A DNA stretch of 64,000 nt from a virus (IMGVR_UViG_3300044904_000300:1-64000), one strand, 5' to 3'; counted from the first letter of the stretch, positions 5,025-33,845 are shown. Program-made: numbers and translations. The notes: generated from the letters alone by a model not told the origin.

Positions 5025-5711
5025 ATGCGTCGATTCTTAGCGCGTGTCCTTCTGGCAGTCGGATGCGTTCTCTTCGCTCATGCGGCAATCGCACAGGAAC
5101 AAGAGCCTGAGTTATTGCCGTCGCGTGTGATCGAGTTCGTTGGTGTTCCGGCATTTCCAGAAGTGGCTACGCTATCACTATCAGCAACGCAGCAAACGAT
5201 GTCGGAGAAAGGCATCGAAGTGCTTAAGGTGTTTGAGTCATTCCGGGCTCGTGCGTATCGGGACGGGGGAGGTGGCTACTCCATCGGTTACGGCTTTCAA
5301 ACATGGAAGGGTCGTCGTGTGACGCTGCGTTATCCTGGCCGCGTGACACAGGTTCAGGCTGACGCGGAACTACAGCGTCAACTTGAGACCTATGTGGGTA
5401 TCGTGCTGGATGTGAGCACGGACCTTCCACAAGAAGCGTTTGATGCGTTTGTCAGTATTGCCTATAACCTCGGACGGGTGAACAACACCATCTGTTACAA
5501 GGTGACCCATCAGCTTCCCATTACGGTTCGGGATTTCCTGTCTACCGCGAAGGTGCGGAATCGGACCGACTGGCGGCTCCAGGGTCGTCGGACTCGGGAG
5601 TTCTTAATGATGTTGGGCGACTACGAGGCCGCGATGGCTCCTGTGGAATCTCCGCATGAGGTACGGGCGACGATGGCTGCGTTAGCCAAGCGTCCTGTCC
5701 ATTTGTTCTAG
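5025..5711 (+). CDS. GH24 (T4-lysozyme-like) endolysin with N-terminal signal peptide
   Basis: FESFRARAYRDGGGGYSIGYG catalytic motif; FDAFVSIAYNLG; L..RRTRE; signal peptide MRRFLARVLLAVGCVLFAHAAIA. Confidence 0.85.
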   Translation: MRRFLARVLLAVGCVLFAHAAIAQEQEPELLPSRVIEFVGVPAFPEVATLSLSATQQTMSEKGIEVLKVFESFRARAYRDGGGGYSIGYGFQTWKGRRVTLRYPGRVTQVQADAELQRQLETYVGIVLDVSTDLPQEAFDAFVSIAYNLGRVNNTICYKVTHQLPITVRDFLSTAKVRNRTDWRLQGRRTREFLMMLGDYEAAMAPVESPHEVRATMAALAKRPVHLF

Positions 5712-5718
5712 GAGTGTT

Positions 5719-6330
5719 ATGGAAATCGTGAAGGCGTCTGCGATGTTGCTTGACGAAGAGCCAGAGGGCGACCCCTGGCTCCGCCGACTTGAGTATTATG
5801 GGCGGATAAGCTGGAAGTCCGAGGACAAGATTACTGATGAGTCCGCCCCGCGGTTCATCAAGATGCTGCGGGATGTTGGGCATGAGTCTGTGCTGGAGCA
5901 TGTCTCGCTATCCGTCAAGTTCGTGGTGGACCGAGGCGTGTCGCATGAGATCGTGCGGCACCGGATTGCGTCTTATACGCAGGAAAGCACAAGATACTGC
6001 AACTACAAGAAGAAGGGTGTAGTGTTCATCGAGCCACCACTCCCCGACGATGACGCCAGAAAGCTCTGGTTTCATTCCGTATCTGTGGCGGAAGCTACAT
6101 ACCTTAACATGCTGGATCGGGGCATCTCGCCGCAAATTGCTCGGTCCGTGCTTCCCAATAGTCTCAAGACGGAACTGTTTATGACTGCCAATCTTCGGGA
6201 GTGGCGGCACTTCTTTAAGCTCCGTACCGCAAAAGAAGCTCATCCACAAATGCGAGAAGTGACGATTCCGCTTTTGCGACAGTTTCAGTCGGCAGTCCCG
6301 GTTGTCTTTGATGACATTACTGTAGAGTAA
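5719..6330 (+). CDS. thyX: Flavin-dependent thymidylate synthase
   Basis: HESVLEH, SHEIVRHRIASYTQESTRY, ARSVLPN, NLREWRHF..LR...AHPQMR. Confidence 0.96.
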   Translation: MEIVKASAMLLDEEPEGDPWLRRLEYYGRISWKSEDKITDESAPRFIKMLRDVGHESVLEHVSLSVKFVVDRGVSHEIVRHRIASYTQESTRYCNYKKKGVVFIEPPLPDDDARKLWFHSVSVAEATYLNMLDRGISPQIARSVLPNSLKTELFMTANLREWRHFFKLRTAKEAHPQMREVTIPLLRQFQSAVPVVFDDITVE

Positions 6331-7773: not shown

Positions 7774-7892
7774 TGAGAACCATTCGTATTTTGATTCTTA
7801 CCATTCTTCTGTTGCTTGGATGTTCCGGCGGGGGCATTTCAGCGGCGACACCTCCCGCGGCCCCTCAAAACGTTCATATAATCATCTGGTAG
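7773..7892 (+). CDS. 39-aa lipoprotein-like peptide (below the ORF-track cutoff)
   Basis: TAATG overlap with the upstream gene; MRTIRILILTILLLLGCSGG lipobox-like sequence. Confidence 0.5.
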   Translation: MRTIRILILTILLLLGCSGGGISAATPPAAPQNVHIIIW

Positions 7893-8085: not shown

Positions 8086-8161
8086 GGTGTTGAGGACGAA
8101 CAGCAGAGTCGCCGGCCTGTCACGTCGGCAATAGCGGGGGCAGCACCCGTCAACACCGCCA
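8086..8161 (+). tRNA. tRNA-Asp(GTC), atypical T-loop GGCAGCA
   Basis: GGTGTTG/CAACACC acceptor, CCGGC-CTGTCAC-GTCGG, G73-CCA. Confidence 0.85.
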
Positions 8162-8196
8162 TATTGTGGAGTAGTCGTGGATACTAAATAATTTGT

Positions 8197-8778
8197 ATGG
8201 AAAACACAGATTATAAGGTATCCACCGAATACGATGGAAGACAGCGAAAGTTATTTCTTCGATGTTTATGTGAGGTGTGTGGTAATGAAATCTGGGCGCC
8301 CAAATACCGGTCGCGCAAGTTTTGTTCTTTGGAGTGTGCTGCGGCATCACGTAAAATAACGAAAGTTTTGGTATCATGCCATACTTGCGGTAAAACATTT
8401 TGGAAGTATCCTCGGTGTATTACAAAAAGTAACTCGGGGTTGTTCTTTTGCTCACGTAAATGTAAAGAATACGCGCAAAGTTTGGCGGGAGGCTGTAAAG
8501 AAATACAACCTGCACACTATGGAACGGGAAGTGGGTTAGAGCAATACCGCAACAATGCTTTCTGTGAATATGGTAAGGTATGTTGCGATTGCAAAGAGGC
8601 GCGAGAGCATTTACTTCAGGTGCATCACATCGATGGTGTGCGTGTGCATAACGACATTAAAAACCTTGAGGTTGTTTGTCCGACCTGTCACGTTCGTCGG
8701 CATTTGCGGTTACTTGACGGTCGTTGGGTGATGGATTTTAGGGGTCTGACGCCAAGAGAAATGTTGCAGAGTTTATAA
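8197..8778 (+). CDS. HNH endonuclease with N-terminal Cys repeats
   Basis: Several CxxC/FCS.EC motifs; LQVHHIDG..HNDIKNLEVVCPTCH..RH; late promoter CTAAATA at 8184. Confidence 0.85.
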   Translation: MENTDYKVSTEYDGRQRKLFLRCLCEVCGNEIWAPKYRSRKFCSLECAAASRKITKVLVSCHTCGKTFWKYPRCITKSNSGLFFCSRKCKEYAQSLAGGCKEIQPAHYGTGSGLEQYRNNAFCEYGKVCCDCKEAREHLLQVHHIDGVRVHNDIKNLEVVCPTCHVRRHLRLLDGRWVMDFRGLTPREMLQSL

Positions 8779-12424: not shown

Positions 12425-12426
12425 GG

Positions 12427-12916
12427 TTAGATCGTTATCGTGTCGCCGTCATAGGTGACGATTTTCTTGAACTTCTTGAGTTGCGGATGCCCCTTGACAC
12501 GACGACGCATAATTGAAAGTTCTGGGTCACTCGCTGTGGACTTTTCGAGTTTCTTGTTGTCTGCGTCCGAAAAGCTAAACGACGATGCGGAAATGGCCAG
12601 CACGTCGGGGATGTAAAAGAAGTAGCAATACAGCGGGAACCAGTTGGGTTCGAGTTTGGAAATTTCATAGCTTGCTGAATGGTGTTCGGCGTTCTCCCGA
12701 TCAAAGACATAGAGGTCCTTGCTTGTGAGAATGCCTCCAGCGTAGTAACACATCTTTCCGTAGTCTTCTTCAAGGGACCACGGAGCATGTTGCTTGTGTC
12801 CTACTTTAGTCCATTCGATTTTCGTGGGGTTCTTGTAGATTTCGGCGTACGCCGTAGTTCGCATCAAAGCCCTTGAGGAACTTTTCGATGAGGAAGTGTT
12901 CGTAGGTAAGCAGCAT
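12427..12916 (-). pseudogene. Tandem paralog 2, interrupted by a 1-nt frameshift near 12850
   Basis: ATG 12916 gives MLLTYEHFLIEKFLKGFDANYG; the family continuation YAEIYKNPT lies in another frame (GGC-G-TAC). Confidence 0.7.
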
Positions 12917-17448: not shown

Positions 17449-17525
17449 GGGCGAGTGACGTAACTGGCAAACGTGCGTGGCTTAGAACCACGATTTTAAG
17501 GGTTCGACTCCCTTGTCGCCCACCA
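17449..17525 (+). tRNA. tRNA-Leu(TAG), short variable loop
   Basis: CGTGG-CTTAGAA-CCACG; V-loop ATTTT; ACCA. Confidence 0.82.
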
Positions 17526-18024: not shown

Positions 18025-18124
18025 GGGAAACGAGCGGCACTAACGCTAAACGTCGGGTGTCCGTAGCGTTCGAGCGACACCTAGGCTGGTCCGGCTTGCC
18101 CGGAATGCAGCTTGCTCGTTTCCC
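18025..18124 (+). ncRNA. Pseudoknotted RNA element upstream of the vWA gene
   Basis: 11-bp closing stem plus crossing helices AACGCTA/TAGCGTT and GGTGTC/GACACC. Confidence 0.5.
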
Positions 18125-18147
18125 TACTTTCATTTCTGGAGAATCAC

Positions 18148-18849
18148 ATGAAGAATCTGATGGATATTACGTTCATCTTGGACCGTAGCGGAAGCATGTC
18201 GTCCATGAGGAACGACGTGATTGGTGGGTATGAGTCGTTCGTGAAGAAGCAGCGTGAGGAACGGGGAGATTGCGTGTTTTCTCTCGTTCAGTTTGACGAC
18301 CAGTATGAGACACCGTTTACCGCGGTGCCCATCCAGCATGTCAGCCCGAAGTTGGATTATTCCCCCCGCGGCAGCACGGCGCTTCGTGACGCGATTGGTC
18401 GGACGATCAACGCGGTTGGAGAACGTCTCCGCAGATTGAAAGAGCGGGATCGCCCGAGCAAGGTGATTATCGTAGTCATGACGGACGGGGAAGAAAACGC
18501 ATCGCACGAGTTCACTCAGCCGCAGATTAAGGACATGGTCAAGCACCAGTCCGACCAGTATCAGTGGGAATTCCTGTTCCTGGGTGCGAACATCGATTCG
18601 TTCCATGTTGCGGGAAGCTATGGTGTGCCGTCCTGGGCAACATCAAACTACACCTACACCAGTGGTGGACTCCGCGCGGTGTTTGATACTGTATCGTGTT
18701 ACGCATCGTCCGCACGAAATGGTGAGCAGTTCAACGGTACGTTGTCTGCTTGTCAGTTGAGCAACGAAGCGAAGCAGGATGCGAATAAGACGGGAACGTT
18801 TGTGTCGGGAACGCAGCCGTCAACGCCGACCGTGGCTTCGAAAATCTAA
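18148..18849 (+). CDS. von Willebrand factor A domain protein
   Basis: MIDAS motif ILDRSGSM, G.TAL.DAI, VVMTDGEEN.S; SD GGAG. Confidence 0.88.
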   Translation: MKNLMDITFILDRSGSMSSMRNDVIGGYESFVKKQREERGDCVFSLVQFDDQYETPFTAVPIQHVSPKLDYSPRGSTALRDAIGRTINAVGERLRRLKERDRPSKVIIVVMTDGEENASHEFTQPQIKDMVKHQSDQYQWEFLFLGANIDSFHVAGSYGVPSWATSNYTYTSGGLRAVFDTVSCYASSARNGEQFNGTLSACQLSNEAKQDANKTGTFVSGTQPSTPTVASKI

Positions 18850-19439: not shown

Positions 19440-19517
19440 CCCTGCGTAGCCCAATTGGCAGCGGCGCGGAACTTAAAATCCCGTCCAGTGCTAGTTCGAA
19501 TCTAGCCGCAGGGACCA
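19440..19517 (+). tRNA. tRNA-Leu(TAA), short variable loop
   Basis: CCCTGCG/CGCAGGG acceptor; loop CTTAAAA; V-loop TCCAGT; ACCA. Confidence 0.82.
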
Positions 19518-19565: not shown

Positions 19566-20456
19566 ATGTTAACAACGCTTTCGTCATTCTTTAGCAAGCC
19601 CATCGTTCACATCATCATGAGCTACTTGATCGTCCTGTGTATTGGTGCGGGACTTGGTGCCTGGAGTTACGCTCGTTGGGAGACACCTCCAACACCCGTT
19701 GTGCGGACCGTTGTGGACACAAAGTATGTTGAGGTTCCTGGTCCAGTCACGGTGAAGAACGTTCCGGTCCCGGTGCAAGACCAAACTCAGGCGAAGATTC
19801 TCTTGGCGCAGGCGGAGAAGGACAAGGCAACTATCTCCTCGTTGACAGAGACGATTGCAGAACTACATCGCATCACTGTTGCTCCACCGGAAACTAAGAC
19901 GGTCTATGTAACAACTCCTGGTGCACCAGAAGCACATTTCACGGACGGGCGCCTGACGTTTGATGCGGTCGGGCCAAAGACGCAGTATGCGCTTTCACAA
20001 AAGATGGAGTCGGAAGTCGCGGTCGGGAAAGATCGAAACGGACAGCAGGTCGTGTATTCCAAGCTCTTTGAAATTTGGCCAGGCGAGACACGCACACAAC
20101 TTACAAATACCAAGGTGGTAGTCGTATCCACAAGCCCCACGACGAAGGCTTGGTTTTTGGGTCCCTCGATTCAGGCGGGGTTTGGGTATGATGTCACGCT
20201 CGCAACAAGAACCGGAGCACTCGGTGGATTGGTGGGGGTCCAGTGGCTCAAACGCGGATACACCAAGGATGCAGAAGACTCCGTGTGGAGTGTCGCGACT
20301 CCCGTGGTCTTCATCGCATCTAAGACCATAAAGGTCGGAATTCTACCAGTCTCGGTAAACTTGGGAAGAATCCCGCACCAGCCGTTTAAAGACCTCTGGG
20401 TTTCTCCGTTGATTACGCTCCACAGCGCCGGCATAGCAATAACGGCAACATTTTAG
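19566..20456 (+). CDS. Membrane-anchored protein with coiled coil (inner-spanin-like candidate)
   Basis: SD GAGG; N-terminal TM helix followed by a heptad segment; function is inferred only. Confidence 0.6.
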   Translation: MLTTLSSFFSKPIVHIIMSYLIVLCIGAGLGAWSYARWETPPTPVVRTVVDTKYVEVPGPVTVKNVPVPVQDQTQAKILLAQAEKDKATISSLTETIAELHRITVAPPETKTVYVTTPGAPEAHFTDGRLTFDAVGPKTQYALSQKMESEVAVGKDRNGQQVVYSKLFEIWPGETRTQLTNTKVVVVSTSPTTKAWFLGPSIQAGFGYDVTLATRTGALGGLVGVQWLKRGYTKDAEDSVWSVATPVVFIASKTIKVGILPVSVNLGRIPHQPFKDLWVSPLITLHSAGIAITATF

Positions 20457-21307: not shown

Positions 21308-21384
21308 CGGAGCGTGGTGCAACTGGCAGACGCGGCAAGCTCAAACCTTGTTTTCTAAGGGTTCGAATCCCTTCGCTCCGACCA
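21308..21384 (+). tRNA. tRNA-Leu(CAA), short variable loop
   Basis: CGGAGCG/CGCTCCG acceptor; GCAAG-CTCAAAC-CTTGT; V-loop TTTCT; ACCA. Confidence 0.82.
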
Positions 21385-22509: not shown

Positions 22510-22606
22510 GCCGCCGTGGTCCGAGTGGATGAAGGCTCCTGTCTTCTAAACAGGCATCGGTTTCCTAAACCGACAAACGCGGGTTCGAATCCCGCCGGCG
22601 GTTCCA
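22510..22606 (+). tRNA. tRNA-Arg with two anticodon stem-loops (TCT then CCT)
   Basis: GCCGCCG/CGGCGGT acceptor; CCTGT-CTTCTAA-ACAGG, CA, TCGGT-TTCCTAA-ACCGA; T-arm GCGGG-TTCGAAT-CCCGC; TCCA. Confidence 0.85.
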
Positions 22607-22609
22607 CAT

Positions 22610-22685
22610 GGGTCTATAGTATAATGGCTATTATAGCTGGCTTTTAACCAGACAGATGAGGGTTCAACTCCTTCTAGGCCCACCA
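22610..22685 (+). tRNA. tRNA-Lys(TTT)
   Basis: GGGTCTA/TAGGCCC acceptor; loop CTTTTAA; ACCA. Confidence 0.87.
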
Positions 22686-22690
22686 TTATT

Positions 22691-23125
22691 ATGAAGATAC
22701 CGATAGAGCTTTCACTCGCGATGTTCAAACATGCGGGCGTCTCGCGGGACGACTTGCATGAGGTGCTCTGCAACATGGCGCCCCGCTACCTGAAGGGTGA
22801 GTTCCGTAAGGAATGGCGCCCGCAGAATCCGACACGGAACTTCTGTTATGTGGTGTCGGAGTGGCTGATTTGTTATGTCGCACCTCCGGGGTCCTTCGCG
22901 TTTCGTGTTGAGGTCCCAGGCGAACACGCGAAGCATTACTTCGTGCGATGGACTGACGGCACTATTGTAGACTTGACCGCAGAGCAGTTTGATGCGTGGG
23001 AACTGGTCGATTACGCTAACGCCAAAAAGGCGTCATTCATGCACCCCAGTCCTTCGGCGAGAGCGCGAATGCTCGATTACATGATGGATACACAGGGGTT
23101 TGTGCGGAAGTTCGGTAAGGTATGA
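22691..23125 (+). CDS. Hypothetical protein
   Basis: Motif CYVVSE...H......G.IVDLTAEQF. Confidence 0.6.
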   Translation: MKIPIELSLAMFKHAGVSRDDLHEVLCNMAPRYLKGEFRKEWRPQNPTRNFCYVVSEWLICYVAPPGSFAFRVEVPGEHAKHYFVRWTDGTIVDLTAEQFDAWELVDYANAKKASFMHPSPSARARMLDYMMDTQGFVRKFGKV

Positions 23126-23895: not shown

Positions 23896-23969
23896 GCGGG
23901 CGTAACATAAAAGTAATGCGCGGGCTTGCCAAGTCCGACAAGTGGGAGCGTTACCCATCGCCCGCTCCA
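23896..23969 (+). tRNA. tRNA-Gly(GCC), atypical T-loop AGCGTTA
   Basis: GCGGGCG/CGCCCGC acceptor; CGGGC-TTGCCAA-GTCCG; U73-CCA. Confidence 0.87.
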
Positions 23970-27283: not shown

Positions 27284-27691
27284 ATGAAAGCAACGCAGTG
27301 GAAGCAACGAAAGTGTGTCGGGGATGGGTGGATGCGAGAGTTGGTTCTTCCGTTCCTTACGATGGTTGAAGCAGCATGTCCTGATGTTGAAATCAACGAT
27401 ATTAAAGAGAAGTTCGGCACGCTCCGCATTTATGCGGCAGGCCCCGAATGGTTGTTTAACGTTGAACGAGTGTTTGAAAGTGCATCCGAGCAGTGTTGTG
27501 AGGATTGCGGACTTTGGCACGGGGAATATGACGACCGCACAAACAAGTATGCCATCGTCGCAGAGGGTCCGATTTTTCCCGATGGAGGTTGGATCAAAAC
27601 GTTGTGTTATACATGTCGGGACATCCGACAGAAGGAAGACGAGCGTAAGTTAGCGGAGAGTAAGTTAGCGGAAAGCGGGGGCGTGGCGTAA
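27284..27691 (+). CDS. Hypothetical protein
   Basis: GDGW..L....IKEKFGTLR.Y....CEDCG....W.KTLC..C. Confidence 0.7.
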   Translation: MKATQWKQRKCVGDGWMRELVLPFLTMVEAACPDVEINDIKEKFGTLRIYAAGPEWLFNVERVFESASEQCCEDCGLWHGEYDDRTNKYAIVAEGPIFPDGGWIKTLCYTCRDIRQKEDERKLAESKLAESGGVA

Positions 27692-27750
27692 CAGTAGCGC
27701 ACGGGGCCTTGGACCCTGGGGATGTGGTGCGACTCCACAAGCCTCCGCCA
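27677..27750 (+). tRNA. tRNA-Gln(TTG), atypical
   Basis: CGGGG-CCTTGGA-CCCTG (C33); TGTGG-TGCGACT-CCACA; GCCA; G7.A66 mismatch. Confidence 0.7.
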
Positions 27751-27764
27751 TACACATCTTGTGT

Positions 27765-27892
27765 GGGTCTGTAGCTCAGGTCCGGTTAGAGCATCTATGT
27801 ATTCCGAAATGGATACTAGTTTTGAGACAGGAACGCCCAATTGATAAGTGACTTGTAGAAGGTCGGTGGTTCAAATCCACCCAGACCCAGCA
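27765..27892 (+). tRNA. Ile-like tRNA with 56 nt replacing the 7-nt anticodon loop; 3' end GCA
   Basis: GGGTCTG/CAGACCC acceptor, canonical D- and T-arms, anticodon stem TCTAT (27794-98)/GTAGA (27855-59). Confidence 0.7.
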
Positions 27893-32964: not shown

Positions 32965-33504
32965 ATGGAAATAGCAGCTTGTAAATGTGGGGTGTGTGGA
33001 GCGGAATTTGAACGACCGGCAAAAGAAGTCCGCCGGTGTGCTCGACGGGGTCTAAACACTTATTGCGGCACGAAATGCGCTTTGGTGGCCACGAAGCAAA
33101 ACCTTAAACGCGGAGGAAATCCGGATGCGTTGGTGCTTGCTCGGGCAGCCAGATGGGGTGTGCCCAACGAGTTCCGTGAGCATCTACGAAGAGCACGCTC
33201 GCACTCTAAGGTGCGCGGCCGCGAGTGTAACATCACCGAGGAACATCTACAAGAGGTTTGGTTGCAGCAACAAGGGAAATGTGCGTATACCGGCATAGCA
33301 CTTCTTAACCCAACGTCGCTAACAAAGGCCGAGGACCCCGGGTGCCGCGCCAGTCTTGACCGTATCGACTCGTCACTAGGGTATGTTATTGGTAATGTTC
33401 AGTTTATTTCTGTGATGATGAACTATGCCAAATCGTCCTTTACCGATGCCGAAGTAAAGAAATTTGTTGACGCCGTTCGTAAAGGGTGTTATAATTACTC
33501 TTGA
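32965..33504 (+). CDS. HNH-type endonuclease; contains the tmRNA promoter in its 3' end
   Basis: Q.GKCAYTG...SLDRIDSS.GY..GNVQF....N.AK; late promoter ATAAATA at 32943. Confidence 0.82.
   Translation: MEIAACKCGVCGAEFERPAKEVRRCARRGLNTYCGTKCALVATKQNLKRGGNPDALVLARAARWGVPNEFREHLRRARSHSKVRGRECNITEEHLQEVWLQQQGKCAYTGIALLNPTSLTKAEDPGCRASLDRIDSSLGYVIGNVQFISVMMNYAKSSFTDAEVKKFVDAVRKGCYNYS
33467..33495 (+). promoter_or_regulatory. Sigma70-like promoter of the tmRNA gene
   Basis: TTGACG-17 nt-TATAAT. Confidence 0.75.
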
Positions 33505-33845
33505 TAATTGATGACGTATTTGATGCGTCTCGCGGACCTCGGGGCAGTACCGAGCCGGTCCACCATAAAATAGCGCCGAACCTCAAAGGAGGTCACTGGG
33601 TAGCCAGACGGCGCGACAGAACGGGCCGGAAATAGATTCGACGGGAGATGACAGAGGATATCGAGGTTATCCGTCGAGCACCGACGTAAATCAGAGCAAA
33701 CACACAATTGACAACGAAATGTTGCCGATGGCTGCCTAAGAGCAGTCCGGGGTGTTGGCGTCGTACCCTGTCAAACAAAGCACGCTGCGCTAGATGGAAA
33801 CTCCTAGCTAGGGAAGCCGGCTCTCCTGAAGTTACAAACCGGCAT
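33502..33845 (+). ncRNA. ssrA: Circularly permuted (two-piece) tmRNA
   Basis: Acceptor piece ends GGAC-CTCGG-GGCAGTA-CCGAG-CCGGTCC-ACCA (33565); IVS 33566-33622; coding piece starts GGGCCGG-AAATAG-ATTCGAC (33623); G3:U70; tag GAC..GCT GCC TAA at 33710-33739. The outer ends are approximate. Confidence 0.9.

Follow-up and report, generated by a model that had tools for sequence, protein, structure and literature searches.

The window comprises the first 64 kb (64,000 nucleotides) of an IMG/VR virus record of 135.8 kb, which is classified as a provirus and is approximately 75% complete, and carries a large array of tRNA genes. ARAGORN identified 28 tRNA genes in the record, all of them within this array (8.7-28.3 kb) and none elsewhere. 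One of these genes (22510-22606, plus strand) was called as a tRNA-Arg(tct) of 97 nt, and the same interval matched the Rfam tRNA family RF00005 at 46.7 bits, above the threshold of 29. It is followed after 3 nt by a gene for tRNA-Lys(UUU) (22610-22685, plus strand, ARAGORN), and this tRNA pair is adjoined by an ORF that matches the YunG-like protein family PF24585 (22691-23125, plus strand).

Most of the tRNA-Arg gene is canonical. The acceptor stem of 7 bp is formed by GCCGCCG (22510-22516) and CGGCGGT (22596-22602) with a G1.U72 pair (ARAGORN), the D arm (22519-22536, sequence and ARAGORN) combines a 3-bp stem (GTC/GGC) with a loop that contains G18, G19 and A20, the T arm (22579-22595, GCGGG-TTCGAAT-CCCGC, Rfam and ARAGORN) has a loop matching TTCRANY, and the discriminator U (22603) precedes an encoded 3′-CCA (22604-22606). 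The style of the D arm is that of the same phage's tRNA-Arg(CCG). Between the D arm and the T arm lie two anticodon-type arms separated by 2 nt, each with a perfect 5-bp stem and a 7-nt loop. Arm 1 (22538-22554, CCTGT-CTTCTAA-ACAGG) carries the anticodon UCU preceded by C32 and is canonically placed relative to the D arm; arm 2 (22557-22573, TCGGT-TTCCTAA-ACCGA) carries the anticodon-like triplet CCU preceded by U32 and stands in canonical register with a 5-nt linker and the T arm. Both loops contain U33, C35, U36, A37 and A38. The linker itself (CAAAC, 22574-22578, Rfam and tRNA alignments) matches a type-I variable loop in size, its last base being C48. These boundaries are exactly those given by the original prediction, which had also described the normal acceptor, D (with A20) and T arms and the CCA end now seen in the sequence and in the ARAGORN call.

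The probability that a second hairpin of this kind arose by chance was estimated at ~1e-6, from ~1e-3 for a perfect 5-bp Watson-Crick stem and ~1e-3 for five fixed loop positions, and chance is therefore not a plausible source. The two-arm tRNA-Arg gene is real. ARAGORN and Rfam detected no further tRNA-Arg gene with anticodon UCU or CCU in the 135.8-kb record, which extends to the whole of this record (~75% complete) what had been proposed for the window, and none of three further tRNA matches found in the window by Rfam alone is an Arg tRNA.

Inspection of the region between the D and T arms identified a diverged tandem repeat of two 19-nt units (22533-22551 and 22552-22570, both plus strand, 74% identical). 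Each unit runs from the 3′ strand of the D stem (AGGC) through position 26 and the 5′ half of an anticodon stem to a 7-nt loop and a final AC. Tandem Repeats Finder called no repeat at this divergence, and another repeat search returned both 19-mers. Aligned to ordinary phage tRNA-Arg sequences, the gene is a complete type-I tRNA-Arg plus ~19 extra nt. Because of the repeat, arm 1 is in register with the D arm while arm 2 is in register with the 5-nt variable loop and the T arm, so that either register gives a canonical geometry. In the ARAGORN fold the first GGC pairs in the D stem, arm 1 (UCU) serves as anticodon arm and arm 2 falls in a 24-nt variable region, whereas Rfam reads arm 2 (CCU) as the anticodon arm, assigns a normal 5-nt variable loop and places arm 1 within a 30-nt D-loop insert. 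In keeping with this, removal of 22533-22551 leaves a canonical CCU tRNA of 78 nt, and removal of 22555-22573 leaves a canonical UCU tRNA, also of 78 nt. The view that the second stem is a variable region therefore holds for the ARAGORN fold, but the element is one half of a diverged 19-nt tandem repeat and Rfam reads it as the anticodon arm. Similarly, the claim that this is not a simple recent duplication stands in so far as the two stems differ in sequence, yet a duplication (old and internal) or a fusion, diverged with compensation, is still the reading that would account for the arrangement.

The YunG-like ORF (22691-23125) was used as a probe, yielding 84 related loci from metagenome and viral collections. 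One of these, L008, is a 1.9-kb JGI metagenome contig that contains a 97-nt tRNA-Arg of the same two-arm design (622-718), followed by tRNA-Lys(UUU) and then by the YunG-like ORF. The proteins encoded by the two YunG-like ORFs are 53% identical, the flanks of the two tRNA genes cannot be aligned and the adjoining tRNA-Lys genes differ at many positions, while the two-arm tRNAs are 88% identical (12 differences). All 25 base pairs are kept and none is broken. Double changes that preserve pairing are seen at four pairs, two each in the acceptor stem and arm 2 (TCGGT/ACCGA in the window, TTCGT/ACGAA in L008), so that the covariation check proposed for the second stem gave a positive answer. Three further pairs have changed on one side with pairing still intact; in the acceptor stem, a G.U to G-C replacement accompanies the two double changes. 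The two genes do not differ in arm 1, in either 7-nt loop or in the 23 nt of 22533-22555. At the discriminator position 73 the window has U and L008 has A, and the D loop has GGA in both. Judged from these two sequences, both of them metagenomic, all helices including arm 2 are shown to be under structural selection.

As L008 is an independent assembly with the same design and compensated stems, it excludes both an assembly chimera, which the original prediction had listed as an alternative, and a drifting pseudogene. Neither uncompensated stem damage nor confinement to a single assembly was observed. Loop 2, whose randomization in homologs would have counted against that prediction, is unchanged in L008. 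Since ~30-40% of the unpaired positions other than loop 2 have changed, the seven unchanged bases of loop 2 correspond to p ~0.03-0.08. The estimate becomes p ~0.03-0.1, a modest significance, when account is taken of four of these bases (UU/AA), which can extend the stem to 7 bp with a CCU triloop (RNAfold). Conservation of loop 2 is itself only suggestive.

Further relatives provided a view of the ancestral locus. In L071/L072 (63% identical in protein) and L003/L037/L038 (61%), an ordinary tRNA-Arg(UCU) of 77-78 nt precedes tRNA-Lys(UUU), so the Arg-Lys pair is syntenic in these loci as in L008. Alignment of these single-arm genes to the two-arm gene covers both ends and arm 1, and what they lack is precisely the 2-nt linker and the 17-nt arm 2. 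Because the syntenic UCU genes carry a single arm matching arm 1, the ancestor of the locus was therefore a single-arm UCU tRNA. We envisage an ordinary type-I tRNA-Arg(UCU) ahead of tRNA-Lys(UUU) that gained 19 nt, either through duplication in tandem of the anticodon-arm region within the gene, after which U34 became C and the stem diverged, or through a deletion that would have fused the gene to a neighbouring CCU paralog. In a tree of the YunG-like ORF the window, L008 and the single-arm lineages fall in one poorly resolved clade, with L008 on a long branch. A single origin of the two-arm form in the window and L008 is possible on this phylogeny.

To assess how widespread the design is, several searches were performed. 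Covariance model R1 scored ~117 bits for two members (117.7 bits for the window gene) and no more than 54 bits for all else among 85 sources and 5 whole viral records, and in this set, which does not extend to the contigs of the closest protein relatives (P0002, 83% identical, P0003 and P0006), it found no third two-arm tRNA-Arg. Pattern scans of IMG/VR and of 185,579 GTDB species genomes produced chance matches only, and no tRNA. A megablast search with 3 kb detected no near-identical relative in cultured phages, blastn with the tRNA matched only ordinary tRNA-Arg genes of cultured phages through the half of the molecule from arm 2 to the T arm, and no relatives were found through the upstream ORF (19566-20456). 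A literature search found no published description of a tRNA with five arms or with two anticodon arms, in agreement with the earlier statement that no described case was known. Based on these surveys the design appears to be rare, with only two instances of the two-arm tRNA-Arg known, in two diverged phages.

The gene was compared with several kinds of known tRNA. Ordinary type-I tRNA-Arg genes of phages (Aeromonas phage 4_4572, Providencia phage PSTCR5, Virus Rctr197k and L071/L003) align with it end to end over the acceptor stem, the D arm with A20, the T arm and the 5-nt variable loop. They carry C32 with UCU and U32 with CCU, as do loops 1 and 2, and the anticodon arm of the tRNA-Arg(CCT) of Virus Rctr197k is identical to arm 2. 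However, they have one anticodon arm and a length of 73-78 nt, in contrast to two arms in tandem and 97 nt. Class II tRNAs (Leu, Ser, bacterial Tyr and Sec) resemble the ARAGORN fold in having a stem-loop between the anticodon and T stems, and in this fold the variable region exceeds 10 nt (24 nt) and contains a 5-bp stem. Unlike these tRNAs, the gene belongs to an isotype other than Leu, Ser, Tyr or Sec, its extra arm ends in a 7-nt anticodon-type loop rather than a short one and is followed by 5 unpaired nt instead of 1-2 before the T stem, and the arm derives from a copy of an anticodon arm. Nor is the extra arm a known identity element for ArgRS (PMC9976931).

An architectural parallel was found in L120 (IMGVR_UViG_3300009537_000056), where ARAGORN and Rfam identified a 92-nt tRNA-Ile(UAU) (2168-2259) with a variable-region hairpin whose loop CTGATAA reads GAU. 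This gene likewise has five arms, U34 in the first arm, a 7-nt second loop presenting a sibling anticodon that differs only at position 34, and a place in a phage tRNA array; the pairing of sibling anticodons on one body is shared by Arg UCU/CCU and Ile UAU/GAU. It differs in having a second stem of 4 bp and no sequence homology to the Arg gene. Also, L120 has a separate tRNA-Ile(GAU) (5237-5310), whereas the Arg phage has no separate CCU gene, and position 34 matters to the synthetase for Ile but not for Arg. A BLAST search of the cultured phage collection gave no match to the two-arm tRNA-Ile. Single-arm tRNA-Arg genes can be aligned with the Arg gene but the Ile gene cannot, indicating that the two share no common descent as two-arm genes and that the two-arm design arose more than once.

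Archaeal split and tri-split tRNAs such as the Caldivirga tRNA-Gly(UCC/CCC) share a 3′ half between isoacceptors that differ at position 34, and are made as separate transcripts joined by bulge-helix-bulge splicing machinery. Here too, two position-34 isoacceptors can be drawn from shared tRNA parts, but from one contiguous gene without a bulge-helix-bulge and in what is probably a bacterial host. Engineered tRNAs tagged with hairpins or aptamers differ in that the chassis is a synthetic allo-tRNA and the aptamer is not a copy of an anticodon arm (PMC7590224).

The bacterial Arg identity set comprises A20, C35, U/G36 and A/G/U73, and does not include position 34 (PMC9976931). As had been pointed out for the window gene, A20 is present in the D loop and C35 and U36 in both anticodon-type loops, and this holds for both homologs, with U73 in the window and A73 in L008. 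No ArgRS gene was found in the 135.8-kb record. With the identity set satisfied by arm 1 and the D loop, and with no phage ArgRS, the host ArgRS should charge the tRNA, presumably through A20, C35 and U36. In ~38,000 codons of the phage, AGA occurs 137 times and AGG 97 times, and the tRNA would be expected to decode AGA, as well as AGG by wobble. A separate candidate, a class-II Ser- or Leu-type body with an Arg anticodon that recodes AGA, was rejected because the D arm matches that of tRNA-Arg(CCG) from the same phage as well as that of the tRNA-Arg(UCU) at the syntenic position.

On balance, we favour the interpretation that the gene encodes a working tRNA-Arg with a UCU-decoding cloverleaf, in which arm 2 is a selected accessory arm and not a second decoder. 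In such a molecule the UCU arm would stack on the D arm and the CCU hairpin would protrude in the manner of a class-II extra arm. Class I synthetases such as ArgRS approach the tRNA with the variable region facing solvent. Moreover, hairpin tags on engineered tRNAs are described as compatible with translation (PMC7590224). Several points speak against the accessory-arm interpretation: only two instances are available, conservation of loop 2 is of modest significance, Rfam favours the arm 2 register, nearest-neighbour folding assigns arm 1 an ensemble probability of only ~5% in both homologs, and the five unpaired nt after the extra arm are unlike natural class-II tRNAs. As a control for the folding, 169 ordinary phage tRNAs from the same loci were analysed, and 15% of them gave an anticodon-stem probability below 0.1. 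The low value for arm 1 thereby loses most of its weight, such predictions being unreliable for tRNAs.

We infer three candidate roles for arm 2. Ranked highest is a spare or decoy loop acting in cis against host nucleases that cut anticodon loops of tRNA-Arg, followed by a stabilising or marking extra arm whose loop would be held by the UUU/AAA extension of the stem, and then by an alternative anticodon. Phage tRNAs have been found to counter tRNA-cutting defences (PMC10264068, PMC11555353). With an RNA ligase gene inside the tRNA array and an RtcB gene at 132 kb of the record, a decoy or spare loop directed at anticodon nucleases is plausible in context, although any protection conferred by a decoy in cis would be limited at most.

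Several other explanations were considered. The two canonical registers, and the choice of arm 1 by ARAGORN and arm 2 by Rfam, could reflect a bistable tRNA in which one gene serves both AGA and AGG by adopting two L-shaped conformers, a possibility that we regard as unlikely. One conformer would form the D stem with the GGC at 22534-22536 and present the UCU arm; the other would use the GGC at 22553-22555, place the CCU arm in the canonical position with a 5-nt variable loop and leave the UCU unit as a hairpin in the D loop. The predicted energies (-33.3 kcal/mol in the window and -32.3 in L008 for the former; -37.0 and -33.3 for the latter with its inner hairpin) are similar, the latter fold being computed as equally or more stable, but folding is not discriminating, given that 15% of the 169 ordinary tRNAs fall below 0.1 for their anticodon stem. 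The 23 nt with two possible partners (22533-22555) show 100% identity in the two homologs, with covariation confined to helices elsewhere; this agrees with bistability but is weak evidence from two sequences. By inspection, L008 retains the inner hairpin of the second conformer only in part, with a consistent change at one position and one pair lost. C32 is present in loop 1 as in genuine UCU genes, U32 in loop 2 as in genuine CCU genes, and a separate CCU tRNA is absent from the record; against this, U34 of the UCU anticodon may already read AGG, and the two-arm tRNA-Ile of L120 lacks such an alternative fold. A tRNA able to switch its anticodon has no precedent known to us. Refolding to present CCU is possible in geometrical terms, with no support beyond that. 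It is more doubtful still that arm 2 is the sole decoder of a tRNA-Arg(CCU) in which the UCU unit is a 19-nt D-loop insertion with another role or none. Such a molecule is what the Rfam alignment depicts, with arm 2 as anticodon arm and a 30-nt D-loop insert, the BLAST matches to ordinary phage tRNA-Arg cover exactly the half from arm 2 to the T arm, and the predicted ensemble probability of arm 2 is ~99%. However, it is arm 1 to which the orthologous UCU tRNAs at the syntenic loci align, the phage, which uses AGA more than AGG, would have no AGA reader of its own, and arm 1 is a perfect, invariant anticodon arm (5 bp, 7 nt), which an idle insert would not stay.

The likeness to the tRNA-Ile with UAU and GAU, in which the U34 arm also comes first and the sibling anticodon differs at position 34 only, raises the idea that arm 2 displays an acceptable anticodon to the synthetase while arm 1 reads the codon. 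For Arg this is very improbable, as position 34 is no determinant in bacteria and arm 1 itself has C35 and U36 (PMC9976931), and sister phages manage with single-arm UCU orthologs. That the Arg case goes unexplained in this way argues against charging by proxy as a general explanation. The gene might instead specify a precursor from which one 19-nt unit is excised and the ends rejoined by the RNA ligase or RtcB, yielding a 78-nt tRNA-Arg(UCU) or tRNA-Arg(CCU). Either removal leaves a canonical tRNA, the record encodes both a PF09414 RNA ligase and RtcB, and another tRNA of the window has a 58-nt insert in its anticodon loop. Nevertheless, the predicted folds contain no bulge-helix-bulge (3-4-3), Rfam scans gave no group I intron or other intron family, and no endonuclease candidate was identified; with arm 2 discarded, no evident constraint would fix its loop sequence, although its stem could covary as a processing signal. 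Altogether we give the precursor model very little credence. A non-functional, drifting accident, whether a slipped duplication, a deletion that fused two tRNA-Arg genes or an assembly chimera, is strongly disfavoured and to our minds scarcely credible. It would fit the origin of the arms from a tandem repeat and their rarity, with no further copy in the IMG/VR or GTDB pattern scans, but the two independent assemblies differ at 12 positions with 0 of 25 pairs broken and four changed on both sides, and the neighbouring sequence is far more diverged than the two-arm tRNA.

Textbooks divide tRNAs, whose architecture is among the most conserved in biology, into type I, type II and armless mitochondrial forms. 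None of these classes accommodates a natural tRNA that has two anticodon-type arms and is under selection, and the two-arm tRNA-Arg is a new form of this architecture, the arginine member of an unpublished two-arm class. Since ArgRS does not read position 34, display to the synthetase, an idea that might apply to the second arm of the Ile gene, cannot explain the Arg case. This points to some other shared cause, such as protection against nucleases that cut anticodon loops, a structural mark of phage tRNAs or genuine dual decoding. If the bistable model were true, one phage gene would supply two arginine isoacceptors, and if it held more broadly, the two-arm tRNAs (Arg and Ile) would form a phage-specific class with one body and two anticodons. 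If arm 2 is functional, it would offer a natural scaffold for engineering tRNAs with extra handles. There is also a warning for annotation, in that ARAGORN and Rfam pick different anticodon arms, and potentially different anticodons, for one gene.

Other unusual tRNA genes were observed in the window and its relatives. Genes for tRNA-Leu (anticodons TAG, TAA and CAA; 17449-17525, 19440-19517 and 21308-21384) are only 77-78 nt long, with a variable loop of 4-5 nt and A73. Short tRNA-Leu genes, including one with GAG, were also found in L071 (1973-2050, 4835-4912, 6302-6379 and 8077-8154). Because tRNA-Leu without the class-II long arm is common to the window and L071, it is conserved in the clade. 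Genes for tRNA-Tyr of 91-96 nt were called in L003 (6555-6650), L037 (11363-11453) and L071 (12079-12169), with no tRNA-Tyr call in the window. In a related phage, L074 (IMGVR_UViG_3300038393_000457), class-I tRNAs for Thr, Gly, Trp, Lys and Ala have 80-85 nt and an enlarged variable region (6023-6104, 7789-7873, 8124-8207, 12425-12507 and 2018-2097); those of Gly, Trp and Lys resemble a short hairpin, with a GAAA loop in Gly and Lys. An enlarged variable region is common in L074, and related phages accommodate additional hairpins in this part of class-I tRNAs, which speaks for the accessory-arm interpretation.

The window interval 27765-27889 matched the Rfam tRNA model at 48.2 bits and was missed by ARAGORN; it has an Ile-like body in which a 58-nt insert replaces the anticodon loop, and may be an intron-bearing or otherwise processed tRNA. 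Two matches from Rfam alone (23896-23966 and 27677-27747; 38.9 and 40.2 bits) have aberrant T loops and are not Arg, and one of them has a GCC (Gly) anticodon loop. As further context, an RNA ligase gene (PF09414, 15481-16083, plus strand) lies inside the tRNA array, and an RtcB gene (132051-133094 of the whole record, G000) is located near the end of the record, where it could be host flank if the provirus call is right; together they suggest a capacity for RNA repair. A vWA-domain protein is also encoded inside the array (18112-18849), adjoining non-coding stretches, and recalls by analogy the Ro60 / Y-RNA / RtcB modules. Finally, a phage permuted two-piece tmRNA is present (33463-33824; RF04321, 103 bits; alpha_tmRNA, 57.9 bits), and its alpha-type permuted form hints at an alphaproteobacterial host.
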